Shown: positions 2,484-53,500, numbered from the stretch's first letter. The stretch is DNA of 64,000 nucleotides from Daphnia carinata (GCF_022539665.2 NC_081333.1:496001-560000); one strand, 5' to 3'. The notes: a model not told the origin generated them from the letters alone. Program-made: numbers and translations.

Positions 2484-3797
2484 TATGGCAATCCGTTTTA
2501 CCCAAAATAAAAATAAAAAATACTGGCCATTTTTTCTGTTTTACTGCTAATTTCGTTTTCGTGTTCCTTGTTAAGTTTTGAATCAGAATCATATATAGTT
2601 ATCTAGATTTAATGATATCATTTTTTAATAGGAAAAAATTTTAAGCCCGACAAAATCAGCCCGGCCTTCTGTTTTTTACGGTTAATTCAAAAATTAGAAG
2701 CCTAATATAAAAATATACCCCATTTTCGTGATCAGCGATCAATTTCGAATCGGAATAATGTATTTTAAATGAAATTTAGGATTTTAAGAAAATTGAAAAA
2801 GTGAGAAGGCTATAAGCCTTCTCACTTTTCCAATTTTGGCCAAATTTCAAATTTGGCTTAAAATACATGATTTCGATGTAGAATGGAATGCTGATCACGA
2901 ATATAAAGTTTTTTTTTTAATTGGCCTTATAGTTTTTGAATTAAACAAAAAAAAAACAGAAGGCCGGGCTTATATTGTCGGGCTTAACATTTTGTCCTAT
3001 TAACAAATAATATCATTAAATCTCGATAACTATACATAATTCCCATTCAAAATTAACAAGGAACACGAATATGGAATTTGTTTTTACGTAGAGTATGTAG
3101 TTTTGGAGTAATCTAAAATATAAAATTAGTGTGTGCGAATCGAAACCATTACTAGCGCGCCAGTACGCTACAGCGCTAGCATGACACATTAAACTTCTTT
3201 GATTATTCAAAAACCATGAACTCTACGTAAAAACAAATTTCATTTTCGTGTTCCTTGGTTAATCTTGAATCAGAATCATCTATAGTTATCTAGACTTAAT
3301 GCTATTATTTTTTAATAGGAAAAAATTTTAAGCCCGACAATATAAGCCCGGGCTTATTTTTTAACCTAGCTTTTACCGTTTTACGTTTTATTCAAAAACT
3401 ATGAGGCCCACTAGAAAACAACCCTCATATTCGGGATGCCCGTTCAATTCTGCATCGAAACCATGTATTTAAAGCAAAATCTAAAATTTTGCCAAACTTG
3501 AAAAAGTAAGAAGGCTATAGCCTTCTCACTTTTCCAATTTTCATCATATCCTAGATTTCATTAAAAATACATTATTCCGATTCGAAATTGATCGCTGATC
3601 ACGAAAATGGGGTAAATTTTTATATTAGGCTTTTACTTTGTTAATTTACCGTAAAAAACAAAAAGTCGGGCTTAAAATTTTTTTCGGTCAGTGTATATGT
3701 AGAGAATTAACTAGAAACGTGGCCGATAGATGGCGATAGCAGTAAAACAGAAAAGGCCGAAAATATTTTTTTTTTCTGCGTAAAACGGATTGCCATA
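2484..3797. mobile_element. Non-autonomous TIR (MITE/foldback-like) element with nested internal palindromes
   Basis: TATGGCAATCCGTTTTAC at 2484 and its reverse complement ending at 3797; subterminal TTTTCTGTTTTACTGCTA / TAGCAGTAAAACAGAAAA; no credible ORF; same termini recur at 39237-44492. Confidence 0.85.
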
Positions 3798-11500: not shown

Positions 11501-14500
11501 TTAGATCTGCTTTCCATAATGCAAGAAGCTTGGAAGATACCAGATGGAAGGTGGCGTTCACCACACCATGGAAAGACCCTATCCCACAGCCAAACATTAA
11601 AAAAAAGAGAGAAAGAAAAAAAAATAAAAAAAAAAATAAATAAAAAACAAACTTATAAACCGAAATGGTTAATTTTAACTTGCGTTCCACGGAAGGTGTT
11701 TCTCTTTTTGATTATAAATTTAGCAAAGCTTCCACAATAGTTACAAAATACCTTACCTAGAGGAAATGTTAAAAGCGGTCCGGTGCAAGACATCCTGTCG
11801 GAGTATGACGCATCATGTTCAAGGTGAGAGTCGAATGTTATCTCACTTACACTGGGATACGAGTTAGAACTTGTGCTATGACAACTGTGGGTATCTGAAG
11901 TTGAAGACATCATGTTTGATGCACTATCAGCTTGCATCGGGGTAGGATAAGTGTTCGGCGCCAGCGATACTGTACTTTGCTCAGGCTGTTCAAATGCTGC
12001 CAAATCTTGGATTAGGCTGGCCAAACCACCTACAAGATGTTTAGATATATTACATGCAATACAAAAATGTTAAAGGATATGGTTATAAAAGTTAAATCCA
12101 GTTCCTCGAAAACAATATACCTAAAAGAAGATGACTATTCAAAGAATCTGTTTCCACTTGTAAAGCAGACAGCACAAGTTGCGTCAGGCGTGGGCGGATA
12201 TTGGAAAAAACTGTCGGTAACGCATTGCGTTCACCAAGAGATCCAGCCAATTCTTTGATTGGTAATGACTAGAGAAAATTTGTTGTTACTTCGGCAAACG
12301 AATGACTGAACATTATTATAATTTAAGCCTACGTGAAAATGAAGAGGTGCGGCCAAGATTGATAAAAGCACATGGATAGAGGCCCGTCGTAGATCTACTC
12401 GGTTTACACTAGGTCTTTCAAGTTTAACACATATTTTGTACTTTTGAATGTAATAATGAGTAATTATGATTTAGCGAAGGTGCTTTACCTGATTTTGAGA
12501 TCTTTGGCCAGCAAAATAACTTCCAAAGATTCTATAACTGATGGAATCAGCGTAAAAACGCCATCTAGGTTAACACGAAACAAATCAGCAGAATGCAACA
12601 AAATGCTTGCCATGGCTTCACCGATAAACTTTTCCTAAAATTTACGAAAGAAAACAACATAAATAATGAGCCATTCTAAAACAAGCGGGAGATTACGAAC
12701 CTCTTTAATTTTTAGACCATTATTTATCACCAAGTAAAAGCGAGCAAGGTACTGCGGCAATATTTCTTCGTCTGTACTCTTTGAACAAAAAATGCGACAG
12801 AGAGCTCCTAATGCTTCTGCTCGGCCATTTTCGTATCCTTCTATTGCCGTACCCCCAATGGAAGTATCGGAAGGTAGCTCAACAACGGTAGCACTACGTG
12901 GACGATTTGATTGGAGTGATGATTCGCTTGTGACACTAACGCTTGATGCACGCGACCTGTCAGCCATGTGCAGACTTGAGGTGTTGGATTCAACGGCCGA
13001 AGTTTTAACACTGAATTGGGTCTCACAGTCAATCAGAGCTGCCTCAAACAGCCACGAACCGAACAGATGCAATAGAGAATTACATCGAGCTCTGTGGGAC
13101 ATCGCGTTTGACGGTAATGAAGCCCCTAAAACAGTTCTTGTTAATGACAAATTTTTGAAACATAGATTGTGGGTCACACACCAGCAAAATCAGTTGGAAG
13201 TGTCGAACGCCCCGAATTCCCACTAGATGTGGTACGATCCGTCCTTTCATGTGGGAAAACGGAAGAACGCAAGCCTAGGAATGCATCAACCAGTCCAGCA
13301 ACCCCTTTCATTGCTTCTACAAAGATACTTGGTAATGAAAAAAGACATGGGTGCAGACTGGGATCTGAAAGCTAGAAAATAAAAAAAAATATAAATCTCT
13401 GCATATCAAGTAACAACAATTACATAAATACTTGAGAACTGATGATCGTATATTGCAAAAACTTGTGAGTCTGGCTTATTACGCTTGGACGTGCCAGTTG
13501 AACAGGATTGCCTATGCAGTGCAATAGTCTATACCAAGTTTGGGCCAAGACCTCACCGGATAATTGGGACGGAACTAGCATATATTCATCATCTACATTT
13601 GAGATAAAATGTAAATATAATTATTTCTTTATGAATAGATGATAAAACGGCTTACTTGTAGCGTATTTAAGAAATGCTGGACCGTACAACTCAGAAAGTA
13701 ATCGCGAAGTTAAGGCCAAATTGATTCGATTCCATTGAGTGATCAAACTCGTGCGATGCCGCCAGGACTGGGCAAGTTCGGTTAAAGTTTTCCACATCCG
13801 AGGGGACGGAAAGCTCTTGGCACATGCATGAAGCCAAATCTCGAAAAGCACACTTAAAACGCGGTCACAAAGCTGATCGCCTATATCATCTGCAATAATA
13901 ATTTTCAATTTACATTTTTTACTGTATGTTAAATAAAAAAACTGCTGACAATACCAATTACTTGGAACAGTAGGAGGAGCTAAAAGGACATCGTTGACGG
14001 TCAGAAGTAGCAAAAGAAGCGAATCCCATGTATCCTGGTCAATTATTGAGGAGTTTATAACAACCGATTGGATTGTTCGGAGGACTCTATGACAAAGAAC
14101 AGCTTGGCGATTTATCAAATCCGGTGCTGGAATAGAACAAGTTTAAAAGAAAATATTAATAAGAAAGACAATAAGCGACGCAAGTCCAAATTAAGTAGCT
14201 GTGAATTAAGTTACTTTTTGGTTTGGACCTAATACTAATTTTTGTAAGTAAAATGATAATCATAATATTTAATGAAAAATAAATGAAAAATAATAAGTAA
14301 TGAATAATGCAAAATAAGAAAAAATATAAAAATAAAGAAATGGTAATTAATCAATACATTACCTTCTCCAGGTCTAGGAATGAATATTTGAAATAGTTGA
14401 TAAATAATTTTTCTGGAATAATGATTAGGTAGCTTTAACAATGGCAGGGGAACAGCCGACTTTGGTTGAGGCAGTAATGCTGAGAGCCACTCACAGTAAA

Positions 14501-36977: not shown

Positions 36978-39115
36978 ATGAGTAACATATACGTTCAAGA
37001 ACCCCCAACAAACGGAAAAGTTAGTGTTGTTTCCGAAAACATGACATCAGTAATTGAAGGTGATATTAAAGAATGTTTTATTCCCCTTTCAGGTTGTTCT
37101 AACAACTTCTTTGGGAGAAATTGAAATTGAACTATGGAGTAAAGAATGCCCTAAAGCTTGTAGAAATTTTGTCCAGCTCTGCCTTGAGGAATTCTTCAAT
37201 GGAACAATTTTTCATAGAGTAGTTCCTAATTTTATTGCTCAAGGAGGAGACCCTACTGGTAAGTTAGCAGTAGCTGTACATAATTTGGTTTCAAAAGTGA
37301 TATATTTTTATGAAAGGCACTGGTCATGGTGGTGAAAGCATATATGGAGAACCATTTAAAGTAACAAAACATTTTGTTTCTGTTATTTTAATTGTTAATA
37401 AAAAATTTTTTAATTTTCCTTTTTAGAACGAAGTTCATTCCCGTCTGCGATTTGTTAGAAGAGGCAGGGAACTTAAGTACTTTTGTTTGATCTTTGCAAA
37501 TGTTTCCTAACAATTATCATCAACAGGTCTAGTTGCTACTGCCAACACAGGAAATAATGACAATGAATCACAATTTTTTTTCACTTTGGGGGCTTGTCCT
37601 GAATTACAAAACAAACACACAATATTCGGGAGAGTTGGAGGAAACACTTTGTTTAACATGGTAAATTATCATTGTTGAAAGACAAAAAAAATTATAATGA
37701 ATCAACTTAGAAATGATTCATTGAATAAATTGTATTTCCCCAGATTAAATTCAATGATCTGGATATTGATAATGTAAGTATTAGTTCATATTTACTTATC
37801 AGACACATGACTTATGATTCAACTCTTACAGGAGGAAAGACCAAGGCATCCTCCTAAGATACTTAAAACAGAGGTTATTAACAACCCATTTCCTGACATA
37901 GAACCAAGAATCAGCCAAAAGCAGGTTAAGGGGCCAGAAGAAACCAAACCCAAAGTTAAAAAAACAAAGTTAGTGAACTAAGTAGATTTACCTTGCCAAA
38001 ATCATAGCATTCTTAACAATCTTTTCTTCATTCTGTAGAAATCTTAAACTGCTTTCCTTCGGAGATGAAGAGGAAGATGAAACTGATGCCCAGCCGGTTA
38101 AGACATTTAAAGGGAAATCCTCTCATGATCTAACAGATGATCCTAGGCTTAGTATCATTCCGGCAGTTAATATGGAGACTGGAATCGGAAAAAAGTAATA
38201 ATGTTTAACTTATTGCCGTGATTAAGGTTAATTATCTTCCTAACTCAATTATTTAGAATAAACTTTTTTTTTTTACAGAAGTGAACAGAAGCAAATAGAA
38301 TCGGAAGTTGAGAAAGTAGTTGTGCCCCAGAATGAACCTCAAGATTTTGCTGCAAATGCTGATGATGAGGTAGTCGACGAGAAGAAACAAGAAGCGCAAA
38401 ACAGATTGTAAGAAATTAAAAACATAAGTGTATGCTCACTGCAACTAAAAAAAACTTTAATTTAGAAAAAAAATCAAAGAACAGATAAAGGATTTGAAGA
38501 GAGAAATGAAAAATCCTCGTGAAGATACAGAAGAAGAATTAACGAAGAAGCAAAAACTTGATGGTGATCATGTTAAGGATGAAGAAGAGAATGAAATACT
38601 AAAGAATTTTCATGAGCAGCACAAGAAATACGCAGTAGTGAAAACGACGCGTCGGGGGAAGGGTAACCGATTCTCTATTGTTAGCGGAACCTCACATTTC
38701 CACTAATCTTACCATCACATGGTCTACCGTAGGTGCTGATCGAGAGGCGGAAACACTTGCTTACCTTAAAAAATTTCAGGAAAAGCTTAGCGAAACGCGA
38801 TTGAAGGAAACAAATGACAGCGTCGCCGACGAAGAATCGGATGACCACACTTGGTGAGAAAATTTCACTAGCCGCTAGGACAGCTGCAGTAATTAATATT
38901 GTAATTATTATTTTAATTTAATACTATATTTTTGCTGCAGGTTAAATCATACCTTAAAGTTCGAAGACAACAATCCTACGTTAGCCAGAGATGCCAACAC
39001 AAAAGGAGATGATTGGTTTGAGATTTCCGATCCTCGTAATCCCCTAACCAAGCGAAGAAGAGAGGAGTCCAAGAAGATTTTGAAACAGAAAGGATCTACT
39101 ACTAAAATGGTCTAA
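36978..39115 (+). CDS. CWC27: Spliceosome-associated cyclophilin CWC27
   Basis: MSNIYVQEPPTNGK; ELWSKECPKACRNFVQLCLE..FHRVVPNFIAQGGDPTG; SQFFFTLG..ELQNKHTIFG; KSSHDL; WLNHTLKFE..DWFEISDPRNPLTKRRRE; TAA 39113-39115. Confidence 0.96.
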
Positions 39116-39456
39116 ATTTTTGAATACAAAAACGTTACGTTTTCGCCTGTACTGAACGAATAGGTCATCTTCAAATATACGATCGTCATTTCGATATATT
39201 GACATTGCGTAAATAATAATACCACGAGCTGTCGAATATGGCAATCCGTTTTACCCAAAATTAAAACTAAAATTATTGGCCAGTTTTTCTGTTTTACTTC
39301 TACCGCCGAAAATAGTAAAACAGAAAAAAGGAAAATATATTTTTCTGTTTTACTGCTAACGCCATCTATAAGTCACATTTTATGGCAATCCGTTTTACCC
39401 AAAATAAAAAATACTATGGCAAATATGGCAATCCGTTTTGTATGGCAATCCGTTTT

Positions 39457-39460
<4 letters not shown>

Positions 39461-39501
<41 letters not shown>
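39461..39501 (+). repeat. Poly(A) tract mirrored by an interrupted poly(T) at ~44387-44421
   Basis: About 41 consecutive A directly inside the innermost left TIR. Confidence 0.9.
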
Positions 39502-39504
<3 letters not shown>

Positions 39505-39658
39505 CACTTTTTTCTCTTTTTTCTACCCGTAGCCATCTACCAGTCGGTTTCGTTATTATAGGCAATATTGTAAGCAATTTGAGTTAATTGTATCCCATTA
39601 GCAGTTAATTGAGTAGCGTGGCTGGAGAAAAACTCGTGGCTGGAGGAACAATTTAAAA

Positions 39659-41031
39659 ATGGATAAGATAATACAACAAAAGGATGGTAAGTATAAAGAT
39701 TATTATATTGGTTTTCAATTATTAATTATTGTTTATTAGATCAAATTATGAAGCTGCAGGCCCAATTATTGGAACAACACAAAATATTGGATAACAGCAA
39801 TGCTAAGGATGGTAAGGCCTAATACATAATGATTCTATTTATTTGCTTTTATTCATTTGTGTTTTGTAGCTCAAATTTTGAGTCTACAAGCTCAGCTAGG
39901 GGAAAAGAACAAATTGGAACGGAACCGTTTCCAAACAGTGAAGGAGGTTTTTCCAAACTCAAACCTAACTGAACGTGAGGATGAATTGGCATTAGGCCTA
40001 AACTTTTCAAATAAGAATTCAAAATAAGTATAGAATTTTAACAAACAATTATTTATTGTTTAGTTATTCAGTCTACCACCTGACAGTGTGTTAAAGTTAA
40101 ATTCTGTTAGTGGTGCACTAAAAGAATTGTTAGTAATAAGTCCATGCAGCGAAGGAAGTGAACAATTGTGGGACCGTATTTGGGCTGAAAATGGGTGTGG
40201 TACGGAAACCCAGAAATAGCATGAGTTCAACATAAAACATGAATTAGGTACTTTTCGGTTTTTTGTCTATCAAAAAGTATTTTTAATGCTATTATTTTGC
40301 ATTCACAGAATTTTAGTGGGGGATCAAGTCAAGTCTGGACGTGTTACAGGATGGAAGAGTGAGCCTACAGTTGAAAAACACTGAAAGTGCATTACCATTA
40401 AGGTATGAGGTAAAGTAATACAGTATGCAAATTGTCTAATGAGAAGTACCATCTTGTGTGAATGAATCCTGTATAACAGCAATCCTTTATAGTTCTGTCA
40501 CAGCTAGAAGCCTCAAATAATTCTGCTTCTCTTGCTAAAGAACAACTTGTCCTTTACGCTCAGAGTGTTGGTGAAGCTGGGTACTTAAATGGCACTAAAG
40601 ATGTTTCATTTCGTTGGCATTGCAGCGATGAACATCATACATGGACTTTTTAGGTATGAAAGAAATTTTCTTGAAAATTTTTTTAATTTATGACAAAGCA
40701 TTTCTCCTGCTTTTTGCCAACCATGTCTAATCTAAAAAAAAATTTATCCAATAGGAAAGGATTTTCAGCATCCTGGGAACACAACTATCAACAATGCAAC
40801 ATTCTAGGGGTGTTATTTTATCATTCAAGAGCCTTATACAATGATTTTCATCTACAATTTGTATGGCCTTTCCCAAGCTTCTGCCAGAAGTTGAATCTAT
40901 GAGTCATGTAAGTCACATGAGCAACAATTGAGATGCTTAATGGTGTTGTTTTTCTTTTCTCAGTGTAGGTTAATAGCAACATTGGATCTGAAAAAATTCT
41001 TGGTTGGGGCAAGACACTGAATAAATTGTAA
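39659..41031 (+). pseudogene. Left-arm copy of an unknown ~8-exon gene
   Basis: ATG GAT AAG ATA ATA CAA CAA AAG GAT G|gtaagt; GT-AG introns; exon-3 donor removed by a 16-nt deletion near 39997; TAG at 40217; further stops and frameshifts; last exon VNSNIGSEKILGWGKTLNKL*. Confidence 0.65.
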
Positions 41032-41768
41032 TGATTGGATGGATGACATGATATTTCTATATTTCTATACTTCATTCGGATTCCCGAGACGGTATTTGAT
41101 ATTTAAAAAATTGAAGTGCATATCTGGGCTCCCTTCCTTTCCGTAGCCCCGTTTCCCCTTGACTCGTAATAAGCCCGTAGGGGGTCATGCCCCTACTGTA
41201 CGGTATATATAAAAACAACATATACCGAGGTTTGGAGGGCTCTGGCCGGAAAGGGGACGTGGGGTGCCGCTTCGTCCGATGATGTGTTCACGGAGGGTGA
41301 CGTGGCTGCCCACAAATCCGAACTAAAGGTTAATCGCTCCTGTAAAAATGTTCCAAATCTTCAGCTCTTCTTCCGGCTTCTCTTAGCCAATCACCGGGTA
41401 ATCTCCCCGGTGGGTCAACAAGGCAGTGTCTCCCCCTGCCTGGGTTGACGGCAACTTTTGAAAGGGCTATTGTGCCTTTTTAAAGTTGCAAAAATAATTG
41501 TAATGTGCAGAGAATTGTCAATAAAATTTTTTTTATAAAATATTTTTTGCAAATTCGTTTCTTTCATTGTCTGTATTCACACGTTACACTTTTTATATTT
41601 AGCTTGCTTATTTCACCTTTATTGTTTCTGTCACCTTTGATGGTAAGCATTGTTTCCATTGGTTTACCGTTTATCTGTAAGTATTATTTATTACACTCTT
41701 TGAATTCTTCAACTTAGATTCAAGGAACAATCTGGATATTTTATGCAGTAATTTTGTATTTTGTTTTA

Positions 41769-41834
41769 CTCGTATGGGAACCGATCCCCAGACATTCAGC
41801 GTGCAACGCCGATGCTCTAACATTGAGCCACGAG
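41769..41834 (-). pseudogene. Degenerate tRNA-like unit (Ala-TGC-like)
   Basis: Reverse complement reads TGGCTCAATGTTAGAGC A TCGGC-GTTGCAC-GCTGA ATGTC TGGGGATCGGTTCCCA: D arm, 7-nt anticodon loop and T arm, but no full acceptor stem. Confidence 0.6.
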
Positions 41835-41934
41835 ATATATTTAAATTTTTTATTATCGCATATCATATGTTATCGTCTAGGATGTTTATGCAGTTTTTCA
41901 CAACTATATGTTTATCTTTCTATTGCTTCCATAA

Positions 41935-42000
41935 GGTTCTTAGCTCTGTGGTAGAGCTTTTATCTGCGATACCTGTTACCCTGGGTTCAAACCTGAGTAG
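41935..42000 (+). pseudogene. Degenerate tRNA-like unit at the palindrome axis
   Basis: A-box-like TAGCTCTGTGGTAGAGC and B-box-like GGTTCAAACC at tRNA spacing; anticodon arm decayed. Confidence 0.5.
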
Positions 42001-42107
42001 ATGTGTAAAAATGTAGAAGAGTATATTGCAGAATTGCATTTCAGTTTTATTCTAAGTGTAAATGCAAGTCCACAAGTGACTAGAAAAAAAAGCCAACAAA
42101 ATCATAT

Positions 42108-42170
42108 GATTCGTGGCTCATTGGTAGAGCATCGGCGAGGTATGCCGAACATCCAGGGTTCGATCCCTGG
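42108..42170 (+). pseudogene. Degenerate tRNA-like unit (mirror partner of 41769-41834)
   Basis: TGGCTCATTGGTAGAGC A TCGGC-GAGGTAT-GCCGA ACAT CCAGGG-TTCGAT-CCCTGG; good A and B boxes; acceptor stem unpaired. Confidence 0.65.
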
Positions 42171-42836
42171 ATAATAATAGAATGCTTACAGATAAACGAT
42201 AAACCAATGCCCGTCACCTTACCACCAAATGTGACAAAAACAAATAAATCAAAGCCAAAAAAAAAAAATTGATAAATGCAATATGTGAACAAAGCAAGCA
42301 AACACACACAATGAAAGAAACGAATTTTGCAAAAAATATTTTATAAAAAAAATTTTATTGACAATTCTCTGCACATTACAATTATTTTTGCAACTTTAAA
42401 AAGGCACAATAGCCCTTTCAAAAGTTGCCGTCAACCCAGGCAGGGGGAGACACTGCCTTGTTGACCCACCGGGGAGATTACCCGGTGATTGGCTAAGAGA
42501 AGCCGGAAGAAGAGCTGAAGATTTGGAACATTTTTACAGGAGCGATTAACCTTTAGTTCGGATTTGTGGGCAGCCACGTCACCCTCCGTGAACACATCAT
42601 CGGACGAAGCGGCACCCCACGTCCCCTTTCCGGCCAGAGCCCTCCAAACCTCGGTATATGTTGTTTTTATATATACCGTACAGTAAGGGCATGACCCCCT
42701 ACGGGCTTATTACGAGTCAAGGGGAAACGGGGCTTCAGAAAAGAAGGGAGCCCAGATATGCACTTCAATTTTTTAAATATCAAATACCGTCTGGGGAATC
42801 CGAATTAAGTATAGCAATGTCATGTCATCCATCCAA

Positions 42837-44235
42837 TCAATACAATTTATTCAGTGTCTTGCCCCAACCAAGAATTTTTTCAGATCCAAATGTTACTATT
42901 AACCTATATTGAGAAAAGAAAAAGAACACAGTTAAACATATCAACTGTTGATCATGTAACTTACATGACTCATAGATTCAACTTCTGGTGGAAGCTTGGG
43001 GAAGGACATACAAATTGCAGATTAACATCATTGTATAAGGCTCTTGAATGATAAACTAGCACCTGTACAATGTTGCATTGTAGATAGTTGTGTTCCCAGT
43101 ACATGAAAATCCTTTCCTATTGGATAAAATTTTTTTTGGTAGATTAGACCTGGTTGGCAAAAAGGAGGAGAAATTCTTCGTCATAAATTCAAAATTATTT
43201 GAAGAAAAATCCTTTCATACCTAAAGAGTCCATGTATGATGTTCATCTCTGCAATGGCAGCAAAATTAAAACATCTTTAGGGCCATTTAAGTACCCAGTT
43301 TCCCCAACACTCTGAACGTAAAGGACAAGTTGTTCTTTAGACAGAGAAGCAGAATTATTTTCTGAGGTTTCTAGCTGTGACAGAACTATAAAGGATTGCT
43401 GTTGTACTGGACTTATTAACACAAAATGGTACTTCTCATTAGACAATGTGCATTCTCTATTACTTTACCTCATACCTTAATGGTAATGCACTTTCAGTGT
43501 TTTTCAACTGTAGGCTCACTCTTCCATCCTGTAACACTTCCAGACTTGATTTGATCCCCCATTAAATTCTGTGAATGCAAAATAATAGCATTAAAAATAC
43601 TTTTTCAATAGACATAAAACCGAAAAGTACCTAATCCATGTTTCTTGTTGAACTCGTGCTATTTCTTGGTTTCCGTACCACACCCATTTTCGGCCCAAAT
43701 ACGGTCCCACAATTGTTCACTTCCTTCACTGCATGGGCTTATTACTAACGATTCTTTTTGTGCAGCACTAACAGAATTTAAATTTAACACACTGTCAGGT
43801 GGTAGACTGAATAACTAAACAATAAATAATTGTTTGTTAAAATTCTATACTTATTTTGAATTCTTATTTGAAAAGTTTAGGTACCTGACTGTGTTCGCCT
43901 AATGCCAATTCATCCTCATGTTCAGTTAGGTTTGAGTTTGGAAAAACCTCCTTCACTGTTTGGAAACTGTTCCGTTCCAATTTGTTCTTTTCCCCTAGCT
44001 GAGCTTGTAGACTCAAACTTTGAGCTACAAAACACAAATGAATAAAAGCAAATAAATAGAATCATTATGTATTAGGCCTTACCATCCTTAGCTTTTCTGT
44101 TATCTAATATTTTGTGCTGTTGCAATAATTGAGCCTGCAGGTCCATAATTTGATCTAATAAACAATAATTAATAATTCAAAACAAATATAATAATGTTTA
44201 GACTTACCATCCTTTTGTTGTATTATCTTATCCAT
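42837..44235 (-). pseudogene. Right-arm copy of the same unknown gene; first four exons splice into an open ~131-aa ORF
   Basis: ATG 44233-44235: MDKIIQQKD|DQIMDLQAQLLQQHKILDNRKAKD|AQSLSLQAQLGEKNKLE..ALGEHSQ|LFSLPPDSVL..GTETKK* (TAG 43659-43661); later exons carry stops. Confidence 0.65.
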
Positions 44236-44590
44236 TTTTCAATTGTTCCTCCAGCCACGCGTTATTCTCCATCCACGCTACTGAACTAACTGCGAATGGC
44301 ATCCAATGGACTGAAATTGCCTACGCCAGTAATAATGAGTCTGAGCGGTAGATGGCTACGTGTCGGAAAAAAAGAAAAAAGTGCGATTTTTTTTTTTTTC
44401 CGCCTTTTTTTTTTTTTTTTTATGTAAAACGGATTGCCATAATATTGCCATAGTATTTTTTATTTTTATTTTGAGTAAAACGGATTGCCATAAAATGTGA
44501 CTAATAGATGGCGTTAGCAGTAAAACAGAAAAATATATTTGCCTTTTTTCTGTTTTACTATTTTCGCCATCTACCGGTGACGTTTTTAAA

Positions 44591-45090
44591 TAGCCTTCTT
44601 ACTTTTTAATTTTTGGCCAAATTTTAGATTTCGCTTTAAATATATGGTTTCGATGCAGAATTGAATGGGCATTACGAATATGAGGATTGTTTTCTCGTGG
44701 GACTCATAGTTTTTGAATAAAACGTAAAAAACGGTGAAGTGTGGTTAAAAAAATAAGCCCGACTTTATCTTTCGGGCTTAAAAATCTTTCCTGTTAAAAT
44801 ATAAGATCATTAAATCTAGAAAACTATAGATGCTTCTGATTCAAAATTAACCAAGGAACACGAAAATAAAATTTGTTTTTACGTAGAGTTTATAGTTTTG
44901 GAGTAATCTAAAATATAAAATTAGTGTCTGCGCATCGAAACCATTACTTGCGCGCCAGTACGCTACAGCGTTAGCGTGACACATCAAACTTCTTTGATTA
45001 TTCAAAAACCATTTTGAATTTAAGGATCCTCCTACTACCAGAATATTTGTACTGCATCGCGCTAGCGCTGGATCGTACTGGCGCGCTAGC
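44591..45090. repeat. Internal module of the 2484-3797 element family abutting the foldback
   Basis: 44591-45012 aligns directly with ~2813-3216 (AGCCTTCT..GGAACACGAA..TTTTTACGTAGAG..GCGCGCCAGTACGCTACAGCG..GATTATTCAAAAACCAT); 45048-45090 is an inverted copy of the GCGCGCCAGTACG core. Confidence 0.85.
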
Positions 45091-47579
45091 GTTTCGTCAA
45101 CTATTCGCTGTATTTCAGAAACGATTAACCTAATGAAAAAAAATTACAATTTTCCCGGAATTAGCATTCAATTTTGAGCAGCCCGACTGATAAATAAGCC
45201 CGACTTTCGGCTGCATCGTGCTCCGAAAGTCGTTCATTCTGTCAGCAGAGCTGAGACTAGGTGAATACCATCACAGCAGGAGTTCGGATTTTATACCTCC
45301 TACGCCTCGCTTTATATTTAAAAGCTGAAAAAATGTGAGAAAGAGGAAATGAAAGCAAAAAGTTTTGACAATGTGGGTTTAACCAAACTTTTTGCCAAAA
45401 TAAATTATTTGCTGGACGTTTAAATTGAAAACTTGTAAAGATAACGAAGGAAAATGGTAGACTAAAGAAAGTTACATTATTTAACATAGAACATTACCTA
45501 CGTATTTTAATCCAGTATATTTTTACTTAACCATAATTGCAAGCGTAAATTCATTGTTCTGCTCCTGGTGTGGGTAGATGACATACTAACAACATTAGCT
45601 GCCAATTTACGATCCAATAGGGTAATAAAAACTAAAATTAATACGTAAGGGATCAGAAAAGAAAGCTTTTTGAACAGTGCACTGAGGCCTTAGCATTAAG
45701 CCGAAGTTCAGAGAAAATAGGCTTTCAAATGCGACAGGAATACGTGAGAGACAAAGAGGAAAGATAGTATACGCCTTTATTGCCGGAGATGATTCGATTA
45801 TTCACACGAGATTGATCCCTGAAATAAGGTGGGACACATTTGTTTTTTGTTGTTGACGCTTCCAGTCTTTAGCACTTATGTGGTGCTAATCAGGTTAACT
45901 ACAACAAATCCATATGTAAAAGTGAGCGGCATCACTTCGGTTCCCCACGTATAAAAGTGAATCGGGATACACTGGCATACCGCAGTCAGGTATCCGATAG
46001 CCAGCACCGCATTTGCATTCTCGTCCGTCTCCTTCTTCCCGAATAACTCCATGATGCGCCCCAGTTTAATGATCGTTATGGTCTGTTTCGTCTTCATTTT
46101 TACATTCTGGGGACAATTAGTCGAGGGCACTCGCAAGCTGCCGTTCAACGGTAGCATTTTCGGAAAACGTAGCAATCCAGGTATGTTATTATGTTTATCG
46201 TTACATTTATGTGATAATAAATAACTTTTAAAGCTTCATATATGATTACATAATATTTCAGATTAAGTGTATATAGTCTACGCATATAGTCTGCAAATTT
46301 GATTGTTGTTTTTGTGGCCTTTGCTGCAAATATTTTTGCACTCTGTTTGGCTCTGTTGGACTGGCAACTTCACCCAATGTTGCAATTATTTGCAGCTAAC
46401 ATTCCAACGATGATTTCTGTCAATCATGCAGGCACAGGCAAGCACGCTGCATCACCAAATTTCCAGCATCTTTGCGACGCGGCTATGAACGCGTGCAGTG
46501 ACTGGCTACCTATTGGCTCCAAATAGCGCCGGGACGATACAGCTCTTTTTCATCAATCAAACGATACGCCGTACATAAAATAGTAACTGTTTTACCCTCA
46601 TGAAGTTCCTCTTTAAAGATGGATGTACACTAATTAATAGGACGTGAATAAACATATAGTTCAATGTCCTTTTTTCTCCAAATCACTCGCTTATTCGTCG
46701 CTTGAATTAGCCTGATAAAATTTCATTGAGCTAGTCAAATTGATCGTTTATTTTTTTGCCACGAAAATGGGTTTAACTTTTAATAAGTGTATGCATAATT
46801 GCGTATAATATTATGGTATGTAAAAACAGATGAAATAAAAACCAAAGTTAGACGTACGTGTGCTTGAGGCTGCTAATTAAATCAATGACAGAAAACATAT
46901 CGCGATCTGTTATACAACTAATGCGGCGGTACAATGCAAGGAAGATTAGCAAACGAAAGAATCAGCTCAGATGGGCATTCAGTTATTAATGCTAAAAAAC
47001 ATTTTGTTCACTAATAGAGAAGTATATCGTAGATATATCTAGTTAAGTATGGTTATCGTATGAACAGCTCACACAAAAGAGAAGACAAACTTGCATTTAA
47101 TCGCATGTTAGTAGTATACTGACTGTTGCATGACATCCAACTTACAGTTTTTGGAGTTGCTAATGTTTGCCGTTATTTTTTTCCCAGAAGCTCAATTTGA
47201 CAAAGCGTAATCATTTCCAACCATACCCATTATAAACCGTTAGACACGTTCACTAACATATTTCAATAGATGTATTAGTTTGAAAATTGGGAAGTCCATA
47301 GTAGTTCACTATTATTAGGAATGCATAATCGGATTAATTGCCAGAGAGCAGTCACAATTACTGAAGCTGTAAGTTGGTAAACTGCTTACAAAGAACGCGA
47401 AAGATGTTGCTACTTTTTTTATTGTCTTGTCTTTTATTGTCTTTTTTTGTTTATTTTTTTTCTGTAATAAGATCGAGAATAAGAATCAAATAATAAGATA
47501 AGCGGCTCACTAGATGGTCACGCGTATAAAACGAAAACGCCGTGAGAAGATGGACTGTGTCTGATCAATAGGTACGGGT

Positions 47580-50500
47580 CTACGTGGGACCGGCTCGTTG
47601 GATGTAAACGTTGATCAATTTCATTTTGCTGCTATTTAGTGATTCTAGGTACGGTTTCAATTCCTCGGGCGCTCGCTTGTAAATTTCAACGATACAGAAA
47701 ACAGCTGCTTTGCGCACAATACTTTCGGCATGGTCGGTGGCACGCAAGAGTGCAGGCATCATTTCGGGTAGAATAGTCACCGTGTCTTCATGTGGGCGCT
47801 GCTCAACTAGTCGAGTCAATGTTTTGATCGCAGTATAGTTTTCAGGGTAATTATCACCAATCGCATGTTTTAAAATGCGAATAAGCTTGTTCAATGAAAG
47901 AACGGCAGCCAAAGTTTTGGCGCAACTTTCAGCCGAACGTACAACCTGAAGTTAAAAAGGATAAACAATGAAGTTTCTACGCAACGATACTTGATTACAA
48001 AAGAATTAAACCACTGTACCTCTCTCTCTTGGTCACGTTGTGCTCGAAAAATGTTGACAAGAATTAGGTCAGCGTAGTTCTCCATCTCTTCCAGCAACCT
48101 GGGCGTTGAAAGCATTGTTGCCCAAAGATTAAATACTTGGCGGCGTACAAAAGAGTCAGGATCTTCACGACATGAAACTAAATGTTTGAAAACTGGGCGG
48201 AAATTGTCTTCAATTAGGTTGCCTGCTCCCTGATGCATCAACTGTGTTAGCATCCTCATAGCATCCTTTCGTGATTCTGAATCTTCTTTTCCAAACAGTG
48301 CAAGGATTCGCTGCATTGTAGCTCTATCAGCTTGTTCCATTGGTGACATCAAAACATCGGTCCCAAGAGAATTAGGCATGGTTTTTTGACGTTTCTCTTC
48401 CAGTGGCAATGGCTTGGCTTCCCCTTTATTTTTTTCAAACGATAAATGCGAAAGCTGTGATATTCCAGAATCTTGTGATGTCGAATCTCGCTCTAAAGAC
48501 GATTTTTCAAAGCTGTAATTCTGGATTTCTGCTGTAGTTTTTCTGATGGATCTTAAAATGAAATTGTTATTATTATACATTTGTCGTATAACGTGTTGAG
48601 GGCGATATTAAATAGGGAAAATTTGCTATTTAACATACTTATAAACTTCCTCTGGGTTATAATGCTCATTTTCGTCATTTTCCAATGACCTGGATGAAGA
48701 GATTTTGGAAAAATAAGTAGGCGTGGATGGTTGCTGGGAAGATGGGTTCGGTATTTGAAATTGCGATTGCGGGGTGACAGGTGATCTTAAAGGTGACGAT
48801 CCAGCAACAACCGACGTGGGAGAATCTGACGCTCTGTTTAAACTAACATTATCCATAGTTCTGTTCAACTGAGATTGAATGATTTGTGACGCGCTGTCCT
48901 ATGATGTTACAAGAGGACAAAGTATTAGCTTCGCGGAAAACCACGCCTGAATTCTAATTCCTTTCGGAATTGGAAAGGCATGTAGGGCATCTTTTACTTA
49001 ATTAATTTAAATTTCATCTATTTAATTCAAAAATGTTTTAATCATTACCTGGCACACTTTTGGGAGGGTATTGAGGATTCGCGTCACTTCAGCGGGGTGT
49101 AAACTGAATAAAGTATAAAGCGCATCTTGCGAAGCCTTCCGCACTTCAGCAGATCTAATATCGCTAGTCCAAGCGACTACTTTTGCAACAGATGCTTCAA
49201 CCAGTTGCGGAGACACTGAAGCGCCAACACCCGCCATGCCCATCATTAAACCTGGCATGATAGAAAACCAGCTCTGTAAATGAATTGAATTTTCATCGTT
49301 TTTCAAATTAACGCACCTGGCGATCCAGATTGCGACGTAACAGCCATCAAATCAGACGGTTGCATGTCGCGTACTAGAGCAGTCAAATAATTCAGCAAAG
49401 CAACTTTTACTCGAGAATTCGGTGTTTGTGTGTTGTCCATCATGAATCGCAACAATAACGCCATTTGTAGGGAATATGGAAAGCAGTATCTACAAGTTAA
49501 AAAAATAAAACACATATATATACTGATTGCAAGACGGGAAAAAAAGAGTAATAAATAAAATGAAAGATTAAGTTTAGCCATTCAAAATTACCGGACTAAG
49601 TCCAAGGTTTTCAGAGTTTTGGCTTGAACAGATCCCAAAAGGTCGGCACCTAATTTGTTGAGCAGGCGACTCATCAAGAAATACAAATTTTCATGCATGT
49701 CATCCTTATGAATCTCAATCAATACTGTTAATGCATCTAAAAACAGGCTGAAAACCTATAACGAACAAAACAAGAAAGAAAATTTTAGATATCACTCCAA
49801 CCTCTTAATTTGAGAGAACATTTTTCATGGAAATAGAATAGTTCCTACTTTGGTATGGGCATCGGTGAACATTTTCCCAAGAATTTCTATCAGTTTACGT
49901 AATTCGTGCGATGGAATCAAATTGCCGGAGCGCAAGAAAGCTTGAAGTCCCATTAATCCCTCTTTTCGCTCTGACCAATGGGTACTGGAACACGCACTGA
50001 TAATATCATAAATATCCTTGTGAGGCGATTCAAGCCAATTTTCACGAAAGTGGCGCTAAAAATATAGTCAATCAGATAAATAAATATTAGATTTGGCAAT
50101 TGGATAGACAAAGCGATGACAGGCTTACATCGGAACGACGATTTACTGAATCCATGGAGCGTTCCGAACACACGCTCGAAGTTTCACTTTCATCGGAATG
50201 ATCATCATATCCACCGACACGAGGAGGACGAGTCTTATGAAATAACAATCTGTTTTTTTAAATTCGTTTTTCTCAAAACAATGTAGATAAGAACTATACC
50301 AGCGCATCGGAGAGGGCAGATTCGGCTTCTCGGCTTTGCTGGAGAATTTTCTGAGCTAGCACCGGGCGACTAGGCGTACCTTTTTCGCTACACCCAGACT
50401 GCGAACGAACCCTAAAACCAAAAAGGTTTAACTTTGAATATCATAGTTCATCATAGTTGCTTTTGCCAACCAGGGAAATGTTAGTATTACCTGGTAGGCT

Positions 50501-53500
50501 TAGATAGCACTGAATGATTTCCACCACGATTGGGACTCGGTTCACGACTCGTATTACTACTTCGAGGTCCACGTGGTGGTGTGGCGTTAGCTACCATTCC
50601 ACTACTGGACAAACGCCTTGGCCGACCTAGTGTTGAACTTTCTACATGTCGAACAGGTGTTCCAGACGGATCGTATGTCTTGTAAGAATATCTGGATGAT
50701 GGCGAACCTGATCGGCTTCCGGCTATTTAACCATTTCAGAATACAAATGCAATTTTAGGAAAATGTGCTTTGAAAAGCCCTGGCCGAGTGTTGCCAAAAT
50801 ACATACGTTGAGACTGTGAAGATCCCGAAGTTCTTGAGCGAGTCCTAGAATTCCGATGATCAGGGGATGTAACGGAGCGAGGATCCGACGAATTGCTATC
50901 TTTTTTGGATGGTGCTGATTTTTTCGCCAATGAATTTGCATCGCCATCATTTATAGATGAAAAAAGAAATAAAATTTAAAACGAAAATTCGGAGATGTCA
51001 AATTTCAAAGTAACTTACGCAATGGAGCAACGTAACCTCCTCTAATGTTACGCACGGCTCGATTTGCCGCCTGCAAATCGATGGCACTATTTGAACGCAT
51101 ACCAGTAGGGACCGCTGATCCGTTAGCCGTGCCAGGTCGTGCACCGTAACTTGGCATGCCAACTTTTCTTGGCGGGATTCCAGGGAGTCTACTTAAATTC
51201 TCAGAAGAGCCAACTTTTAACCTTGGATGAACCGGAAGCGATGCAGGACCCGAGTTGGCATTTGTCGGTGGCCGAGCAAGTCCAGCTGATTGTAGTGAAT
51301 GGCTTGAACTGGAATTAGAGAGGCTTGCCTCTCCATATAATAATTTCTGGTATGAGAGATCCAACGAGTGAAGTAATGCATCAGCTTGAGCAGGGAAATG
51401 GGAAGCAAATCCCCCGTAGGCCCTGAAAATGACGCGACAGAAAATGAGTTAAATAAATACGACGAATGATAATAAAATGAAGAAAGTTAAAACTTAAAAG
51501 CGGCAACACTAAAACAGAAATTAATGGCGCTTACTTTCTGGAAAATGCACGAGCATCCGGATCTGCATCTTTGATACCGTTGCTTACAGCACTCTGAATG
51601 AGGGCGACATGTTTTTCAAGAATGTGTGTGGGCCACGTATGCAGGAGTTGATCTAAAAATTCACACATGGCACGGCGGATATCCTTGGATTTGGAAGTCA
51701 TGTGATTAGTTAAAATAGGGATCAATCGAGCACTGTGAGTGTGTGCAATGATGAAGCGAATACAAACAGTGCCAGCTGTAGCCATGATCTGTAACAGAAG
51801 CGTTATCCATTAGTACGATCTGATGCATCGATATCCAATAAGTACGCGCCAAGAAGAGAACAGGTAAAGCTTCTTACCTTTGCACTGTTTGGAATCAACA
51901 AAATTAATGGATTCAATAAAGCTTCCGCAAAATGGTCCAATTTATTTTGTAGCTGTTGTGACATATACGCGATTGACACGCATGCTTCTCGGACAACCTG
52001 TGATCTACGAGGAAAGAAGCGAAATTTCGTATTTAAAAGCAAACATTTTTTTTGTGTGTTTTCACAATATTTTTTTTTTACCTTAGATCTTTCACGCTGG
52101 TTACAAAAGCTGTTTCCAAAAGACGAATATGCTGAAACAACTCATCGTAGTTGGCTGCACCAGCTATCAGCAGAGACCGTATCTTTTTTAACTGCGATGC
52201 GAATAAAAAAAAAACGGGATGGTAAACTACAAATCCTGAAATGCACTGGGTGAAATCTGTTTTACTCACTGTTTCGGCACGTTTAGCCCAATCGTTATTA
52301 GGGTCTTGGATAATTGTTCTCATGCTGACCAGATGCTCTTCCATTTCTTTGGCTGAGTAGATCTGAATTTTGGGTACGTCTTCAAAGGCTCTCATGAATG
52401 TTTCTTCATCCATCCCGCCTCCTGCCGCCGGACCTAATAATACAGAATTAGCTGTACATCCCATAGATAATAAAAACAACCAAACACTACGTTTGAAAAT
52501 TGTACACGGCAGGCGTATAATAGTACAAATACGAATAATTTTCTGCTCGATTAATTAGGTAATTAATCTTTTAAAGTAATAAAAAAAATACAATCAATAC
52601 TTGTACCAGCAACAGATGATGTGACTCCTTTACTTAGGGGTGGCGCCATTAATTTCCGTACGGCGGGGGCACTGGTAGCTCTTTTGGAACCGGTCATTAA
52701 CTGCATGTTATGAAATGAGATTTAGCATTGTGATTTTAGGACATTCGCTTTATCGTGAAAAAAAAAAAAAAAAAAAAAAAAAAAAACGCGAAAAGTATTC
52801 TTGGACAAGGGTAAGATGACCCCCATTTGATTTCCCTTTTATGGCGCAACTATGGAATATAATCTACACTCGTTTAAATTCTTCTAAAAATGCAATTCAT
52901 ATTTGGAATACAATAAAATAACTTAAATTCCCCAGGTAGAGATGCAAAACCTTCGTCAATAATATAAAAAGAAATAACTGGATTGTTGATTGGAATTCTT
53001 GATTAACATCCGCAATTTTATCCCTGTTAAAAATTCGAATTCTTGTTCTCTTTTTTTCCGCCCAAAACTAAATCTTTTACCAGTTTATCGCTTTTGAGAA
53101 TTCAAAACGTTTTATCTCATGAATAACTCAGAATCGAGCACCCAAGGCAACGGAGCTTACAGCTTTCTAGTCGACGATAAAACGCACAAAAGCCAAAGCA
53201 ATTTGGTCTTCACGCAAGAAAGTTATGATTTTGCATACTTGAGTGACGACTTTCATTCCCCATTTCCACCTATTGCATCCCTTCCGTCACCATTCACGAC
53301 GAAATGTCGAATACAACAAAGAGAATGGCAAACACCATTATGTTACATTTGAAAAGGCAATCTTCTTTTCAAACGAGATGGATATTTTCCGTTTATGGTG
53401 AAGGAGGAACACCTACAAGGTTACGGCGAAAACTGCCAGACGTAACAAATGACAAAATGGAACTTACCAAAGAGCGGTCTGGTTCATCTTCCGTTGGTTT

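Follow-up and report, generated by a model that had tools for sequence, protein, structure and literature searches.

Transposons of the IS3EU group have TA..TA ends and usually 6-bp target-site duplications (TSDs; PMC10045372), with termini that have been described as TAYGG..CCRTA, also with 6-bp TSDs (PMC12730594). In Selaginella, gene fragments are carried by 29% of GingerRoot elements (PMC6839031). ISL2EU elements are marked by GG termini and by a TSD of AT within an A|AT|T target (PMC4482050). For Galileo, a Foldback-like element of Drosophila, 12 chimeric copies have been reported in which the terminal inverted repeats (TIRs) belong to two subfamilies and the flanks do not match (PMC3573991). 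Here we describe a mirror structure of ~5.3 kb, with arms of ~2.4 kb each, within a 64,000-nucleotide stretch of Daphnia carinata DNA (GCF_022539665.2 NC_081333.1:496001-560000; the whole of this stretch is termed the window, and positions are counted from its first letter). We read the structure, at a probability of about 0.55, as a non-autonomous foldback DNA transposon with IS3EU-type ends and one spliced orphan gene per arm, whose arms come from different subfamilies and each give their own polyadenylated messenger RNA (mRNA).

The two arms form a single inverted alignment, in which 39307-41693 pairs with 44566-42172 at 89.6% identity over 2,436 columns (BLASTN, E=0). This agrees with an earlier note on this DNA, made from the sequence alone, which had described mirrored arms of ~2.5 kb around a spacer of ~260 bp; the spacer measures 263 bp. 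The same note began the mirror at 39237, but pairing starts at 39307, and 39237-39306 is an extra, unpaired end that lies outside the mirror. Its estimate that the element starts ~120 bp past the CWC27 stop codon was accurate: the upstream gene is CWC27 by phmmer, it shares the strand of the left arm, and its stop at 39115 is 122 bp before 39237. To the right of 44566 the sequence continues as the body of a miniature inverted-repeat transposable element (MITE) related to window 2484-3797. Identity between the arms is uneven, at 98-99% over 39800-40099, 85-97% across the remaining gene part, 100% at 41200-41499 and 69% at 41600-41699, while ~80 bp at 41694-41776 have no counterpart in the mirror. 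Closest to the axis, a 64-nt mirrored pair (41777-41840 and 42104-42167, 73%) encloses the spacer. The proposal that all parts follow in the same order in reverse is correct for the arms, the gene, the structured block and the tRNA-like units, but the symmetry is patchy. The longest run of arm-to-arm identity spans 367 bp (41194-41560, partner 42319-42685); the longest run in 10,000 shuffles of the mismatch positions was 226.

The ends of the structure are of IS3EU type. The motif TATGGCAATCCGTTTT is found eight times in the window: at 39237, 39381, 39424 and 39441 on the left, ending at 44441 and 44492 on the right, and at both ends of the MITE at 2484-3797. At all eight, TATGG is read inward, which is the IS3EU/GingerRoot terminus and conforms to the TA..TA (TAYGG..CCRTA) pattern. 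The ends share an inward layout of terminal motif, A-rich linker and T-rich stretch, to which the fuller ends add the GCCATCTA module; the shared module is ~100 bp long, and IS3EU/GingerRoot TIRs exceed 30 bp. The A-run earlier taken for poly(A) is the A-rich linker of this module and not an mRNA tail, and a retro-origin based on it was rejected: introns are kept and the run is an end linker. Membership of ISL2EU was likewise rejected, the A|AT|T target context being present at none of the eight ends, where AT has T outside it at left ends and A outside it at right ends, without exception. Long inverted arms together with TATGG..CCATA ends uphold the earlier identification of a foldback TIR element, whose ends can now be typed as IS3EU/GingerRoot-like. 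Further long A-rich runs, at 11594-11654 and 52743-52786, match the linker by composition only.

The MITE at 2484-3797 is likely a non-autonomous IS3EU-type element. Its 6-bp flanks are identical at five of six positions (P=0.007 for random 6-mers of the window), a single case with one mismatch. Its body is internally palindromic (2658-3672, 80%). Across the 32 frames scanned (14 + 18, one of them being CWC27), no integrase-like DDE transposase was found in the mirror structure, with no Pfam match under E=0.02. Absence of the transposase is expected for a non-autonomous copy.

Both arms carry a spliced gene directed toward the axis, with the end motif ~220 bp upstream of the ATG in each. The spliced open reading frame (ORF) of the right arm is identical at 131 of 131 residues to XP_059350649.1 (P0035), the product of LOC132087855; in the left arm a 16-nt deletion removes the third splice donor and the ORF is broken. 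A search with exon 4 returned 84 member sequences in 12 clusters, each represented by an uncharacterized protein of D. carinata, and one further member from a profile search brings the family to at least 85 RefSeq proteins, among which there may be isoforms, with at least 55 distinct LOC ids. The 45 of 84 members that were listed lie on nine chromosome-scale contigs of 7.9-14.4 Mb. The family has two main types, K-type and D-type. The left arm reaches 95% identity with its best relatives, which are of K-type, and the right arm 98-100% with relatives of D-type, while the two arm proteins agree at 115 of 127 positions and rank 17th and 23rd of 46 in each other's lists. A recent local inverted duplication is therefore unlikely, because the arms fall in different subfamilies and are not nearest neighbours.

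Evidence for splicing comes from a sequencing run, X1. This run is recorded as 'DNA?', but because its contigs skip GT..AG introns at seven of the nine listed CWC27 joints we treat it as RNA, which we infer to be from a near-identical strain; the listed CWC27 exon pieces show no differences from the window. Another run, X2, gave no match. At six of the 12 listed arm-gene joints, including those of 3′ non-coding introns, the X1 contigs show GT..AG, and the gene family is therefore spliced. In each arm an AATAAA signal stands at the inner end of the structured block, before the axis. Transcription of each arm would start near its end and run toward the axis, with polyadenylation before the axis is reached, and its usual product would be an ordinary mRNA rather than a hairpin. 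The summed depth of X1 falls past ~41500 and is near zero in the spacer, and a CWC27 contig stops at 39194; the depth and ends of contigs cannot show the level, start or end of a transcript, and were unused as evidence. Contigs in X1 also join the same end modules to other flanks and bodies (a loose end before 39381, and joints 39256/45053 and 44578/45041), so these ends are common to several repeat families.

Between the gene and the axis, each arm contains a GC-rich block, and this confirms the structured block of the earlier description: the block is 99% identical between the arms and its folding (z=-3.9) was equalled by none of 100 shuffles. It matched no Rfam family. Two X1 pieces (98 and 136 nt) match it without difference, and the block may be uniform across the family, not just between these arms, and cis-acting. 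The identical 367-bp run would reflect either recent conversion or a conserved cis-acting sequence.

The core had been called tRNA-like. Mirrored units with cloverleaf-like folds are indeed present, pointing outward, the left into the left arm and the right into the right arm, but they are not tRNA genes: ARAGORN found none, and the Rfam scores of 27.8 and 23.1 bits fall below the cut-off of 29. The bodies of the two units align better than all 200 shuffles, and the calls of A and B boxes use a loose pattern. An RNA polymerase III (Pol III) transcript starting from these heads would stop at the first T4, at ~41540 and ~42325, beside the AATAAA sites, and the units may be Pol III remnants akin to short interspersed nuclear elements. 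The coordinates of all features are collected in table 1. Farther along the window, on the minus strand at ~47600-52500, lies a long multi-exon gene read by eye as a CLASP-like candidate.

Table 1. Features of the mirror structure and of its surroundings, in window coordinates.
Feature	Position	Strand	Evidence or remark
Unpaired outer end: terminal motif, A-rich linker, partial subterminal module	39237..39298	+	89% over 66 bp to MITE 2484-2549
Left arm of inverted repeat	39307..41693	+	89.6% to right arm
Left stack: three terminal motifs (39381, 39424, 39441), A-rich linker, subterminal GCCATCTA module	39381..39545	+	motif and module scans
Left-arm ORF, K-type subfamily, 85 aa if intron 3 is kept	39659..40219	+	exons 39659-39686, 39740-39811, 39870-39997, 40064-40219
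Spliced 3′ non-coding part of left unit, to AATAAA 41520-41525	40220..41525	+	GT..AG joints 40245/40307, 40407/40478, 40407/40562, 40650/40752 in family contigs
Structured GC-rich block	41061..41553	+	99% between arms; contains most of the 367-bp identical run 41194-41560
Left tRNA-like unit: head 41837-41766 with A/B-box-like motifs, body to first T4 at ~41540	41540..41837	-	Rfam tRNA 23.1 bits; cloverleaf-like fold
Unpaired spacer; near 41937-41995 it has a third A/B-box remnant, more decayed than the others	41841..42103	.	likeness of remnant to the other heads is at shuffle level
Right tRNA-like unit: head 42104-42170, body to first T4 at ~42325	42104..42325	+	Rfam tRNA 27.8 bits, E=0.012; cloverleaf-like fold
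Right arm of inverted repeat	42172..44566	-	same BLASTN alignment as left arm
AATAAA of right unit	42354..42359	-	828 bp from left AATAAA
Right-arm ORF, D-type subfamily, 131 aa	43659..44235	-	exons 44235-44208, 44154-44083, 44024-43885, 43814 onward
Right stack: a subterminal module and a T-rich linker, followed by terminal motifs ending 44441 and 44492 and by subterminal modules placed back to back	44349..44586	-	motif and module scans
MITE body related to window 2484-3797, far end missing	44590..45173	.	81-83% to 2815-3518; no further terminal motif in window
Sister MITE, TATGG..CCATA ends, 1,314 bp	2484..3797	.	6-bp flanks match 5/6
Last coding frame of flanking host gene CWC27, outside the element	38897..39115	+	phmmer to human CWC27 E=3e-10; spliced contigs

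A single arm of the palindrome has the end motif on its outer side only, and a two-ended unit therefore needs both arms. Among 52 LOC ids of the family there are six consecutive steps against 0.14 expected, five of which are pairs with identical proteins, on four contigs. Spacer contigs in X1 carry 13 differences in 176 bases, and one of them runs from the spacer into the right tRNA-like head. The divergent spacer copy and the five identical neighbour pairs support movement of the whole palindrome. The LOC-pair test covers 45 of the 84 proteins irrespective of pair orientation, tandem direct duplicates also give consecutive ids, and the id of LOC132087855 comes from a later series than the other family ids; the test is weak both ways.

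Several observations weigh against reading the structure as a transposon of this kind. No 6-bp TSD surrounds it in the eight left/right end pairings checked (best 4/6), and the mirror extends 74 bp past the outermost paired end motifs; this copy is therefore rearranged and did not arrive by clean cut-and-paste at these ends, and in view of the missing TSD we term it IS3EU-like and do not file it as a member of IS3EU/GingerRoot. Support for a TSD comes from a single MITE, whose flanks differ at one position. End-motif scans of metagenomes and viral contigs found no autonomous partner and gave chance-like matches only: the 24-mer of the end motif had no match in metagenomes, and its 18-mer had 12 single matches in metagenomes and two in viral contigs, none of the 14 loci having the subterminal module, so that all were taken as chance. 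Of the 52 listed LOC ids, 41 have no consecutive partner, so most listed copies look single, and the nearest K-type and D-type ids on one contig are seven apart among the members listed. Finally, X1 speaks for the family and not for this locus: where one arm has a private letter, all contigs at the listed sites carry the other letter, in a set of contigs that drops rare variants.

These points bring forward a different account, which we consider possible but unlikely, in which the mobile unit is a single-gene element and the palindrome a one-off joining of a K-type and a D-type copy at clustered IS3EU-type ends, by ectopic recombination or by aberrant (alternative) transposition. It fits the lack of a TSD and the many family members listed without a consecutive LOC partner, and it would explain the stacked, broken and back-to-back end modules and the truncated MITE at the flank; in maize, alternative transposition of Ac/Ds yields inverted composite insertions (bioRxiv 2020.01.07.897926). 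Against it, there is no inner end motif between the arms, which excludes a simple nested insertion, and the same composite end stack is present in both arms; the divergent spacer copy in X1 and the five identical neighbour pairs elsewhere are also contrary to a single event.

The earlier note had proposed a hairpin-RNA locus, and no result supports that role. On this proposal, as for Mu killer in maize, read-through from an arm promoter or from CWC27 would cross the axis and fold back, and small interfering RNAs (siRNAs) would silence the family. The capacity to fold back is there, with 791 of 2,007 21-column windows perfectly complementary; CWC27 ends 122 bp upstream on the strand of the left arm, the left-arm ORF is broken, and Mu killer has been proposed to act in this way (PMC3440606). 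But an AATAAA stands ahead of the axis in both arms, the two lying 828 bp apart, and read-through from the right would meet three more. X1 contains spliced contigs of the family, which hence was not shut off there; among the matches listed there is no record that crosses the axis, though contigs cannot show absence. Since each arm has its own signal before the axis, the locus is probably not a dedicated hairpin-RNA gene, and we hold the Mu killer-like account to be improbable. A more far-reaching version is a long shot of much the same order: a palindromic IS3EU-type element moving as a mirrored gene pair would have spread dozens of spliced, transcribed orphan genes across the chromosomes of D. 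carinata, with the near-invariant structured 3′ block and the outward Pol III units serving as a stop at the axis that sets the amount of self-directed hairpin RNA, so that copies switch between mRNA and silencing. The locus provides a natural setting in which to learn, for a crustacean, whether an inverted repeat of 2.4 kb that is transcribed escapes small-RNA silencing or contributes to it, and how.

The gene had also been described as captured, in the manner of Pack-type elements, but as the capture of a host gene this is not supported, no donor or Pfam domain having been found. No Pfam family (14 + 18 frames and family proteins) or NCBIfam family (four proteins) was matched at cut-off, and curated cut-offs were approached only by TPR matches, on the unrelated protein P0053. 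A putative remnant of a KDZ transposase in the 3′ exons was rejected as it has no Pfam support. When 1.84 billion proteins were searched with a profile, 10 matched: two are family members, three match exon 3 only (two from D. magna, one unnamed from Logan), four match exon 4 only (two from D. magna, one from D. sinensis, one unnamed from Logan), and the tenth is an unrelated TPR repeat protein from JGI/IMG. The D. magna protein of LOC116918539 (P0048) is 58% identical to exon 4 over 45 aa, the match falling in its first 60 residues; beyond this it has a helical region ending in RKLNRRKYIVRLG, and then stops. We take its second half, as an unconfirmed lead, to resemble the stretch that leads up to the catalytic core in IS3EU transposases. 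GingerRoot residues immediately ahead of the core look like it by eye, and the likeness was unconfirmed by profile, fold or database searches (viral contigs, plasmids and PDB sequences among them). Mean predicted local distance difference test (pLDDT) values were 44 for P0009 and 41 for P0048 when each was folded from its single sequence, the best scores in the ESM Atlas were 0.77 and are leads only, and no longer homologue was found for the downstream exon at 40477-40650. Exon 4 resembles the start of a probable transposase fragment in D. magna, the transposase likeness of which is judged by eye. Because exon 4 matches P0048, whose second half looks transposase-like, the evidence suggests that the arm gene is a mosaic of at least partly transposon sequence and not a captured host gene.

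A very improbable alternative is that the proteins form a young host gene family under selection, that the palindrome is a gene pair kept by arm-to-arm conversion, and that the transposon ends are bystanders. Many copies do have intact, spliced ORFs of 131-162 aa, relatives of exon 3 and of exon 4 occur separately in D. magna and D. sinensis, and the 367-bp identical run exceeds the maximum of the shuffles. Opposed to this are the spread over nine contigs at high identity, stops at many different positions (102-179 aa), and an end motif ~220 bp upstream of the ATG in both arms. Codon comparison of the arms gives 12 non-synonymous and six synonymous differences in 128 codons; the counts are small, and show no strong constraint between the arm genes. 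An assembly artefact, by fold-back of a read or the join of two haplotypes, is scarcely credible: the arms differ by ~10% with indels and belong to different subfamilies around a unique spacer, which makes good the earlier argument from arm divergence, and the right-arm protein is present letter for letter in RefSeq.

The foldback transposon reading would be accommodated by the following course of events. Any movement of the element would have depended on an IS3EU/GingerRoot transposase supplied from elsewhere, and its inverted repeat would have grown inward from the ends until a whole transcription unit was taken in. Later recombination or conversion between copies may have paired a K-type with a D-type arm, with loss of the TSD, as in the chimeric copies of Galileo. 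If this is true, at least 55 'uncharacterized' D. carinata RefSeq loci are transposon cargo and not host genes, which alters counts of lineage-specific genes. We found no description of this element in the open literature, a search that did not cover Repbase, Dfam or subscription journals, and a Repbase entry for the ends may exist.

With IS3EU/GingerRoot elements the structure has in common its TATGG..CCATA termini, its ~100-bp end modules, gene cargo and many unpaired ends, and the sister MITE adds 6-bp flanks that nearly match (PMC10045372, PMC12730594, PMC6839031). It differs in having no transposase core and, at this copy, no TSD, and in its arms, which are 100-150 bp in IS3EU/GingerRoot but 2.4 kb here, with a whole transcription unit mirrored. 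Pack-MULE and Pack-TIR elements are similar as non-autonomous TIR elements with spliced, gene-like cargo (PMC6839031), but at this locus no host parent gene was found, the ends are not of MULE type and the cargo is present twice. In maize, Mu killer and Ac/Ds composites also place an inverted duplication of transposon sequence beside a host gene able to drive read-through (PMC3440606; bioRxiv 2020.01.07.897926); for those loci reports or proposals exist of a hairpin transcript and of siRNAs, whereas here polyadenylation signals precede the axis in both arms. Galileo and the Foldback-like elements of Drosophila likewise have long, internally repetitive inverted arms without a transposase and are non-autonomous, as is found here. 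In Galileo, TIRs are extended by taking in internal sequence, as is proposed for this locus, and, as here, arms can be of two subfamilies and flanks do not match; Galileo is placed in the P superfamily, with TIRs of up to ~1.26 kb and 7-bp TSDs, whereas the D. carinata structure has IS3EU-type ends and arms twice as long (PMC3573991), each arm bearing a spliced ORF, its own AATAAA and a tRNA-like unit. The parts are all of known kinds, and what is new is how they are combined: ends of IS3EU type, arms of 2.4 kb, a spliced orphan gene in mirror image and tRNA-like units that point outward; if the reading is true, the foldback structure of the Galileo type extends to IS3EU-type ends and to arms long enough for a whole spliced gene.

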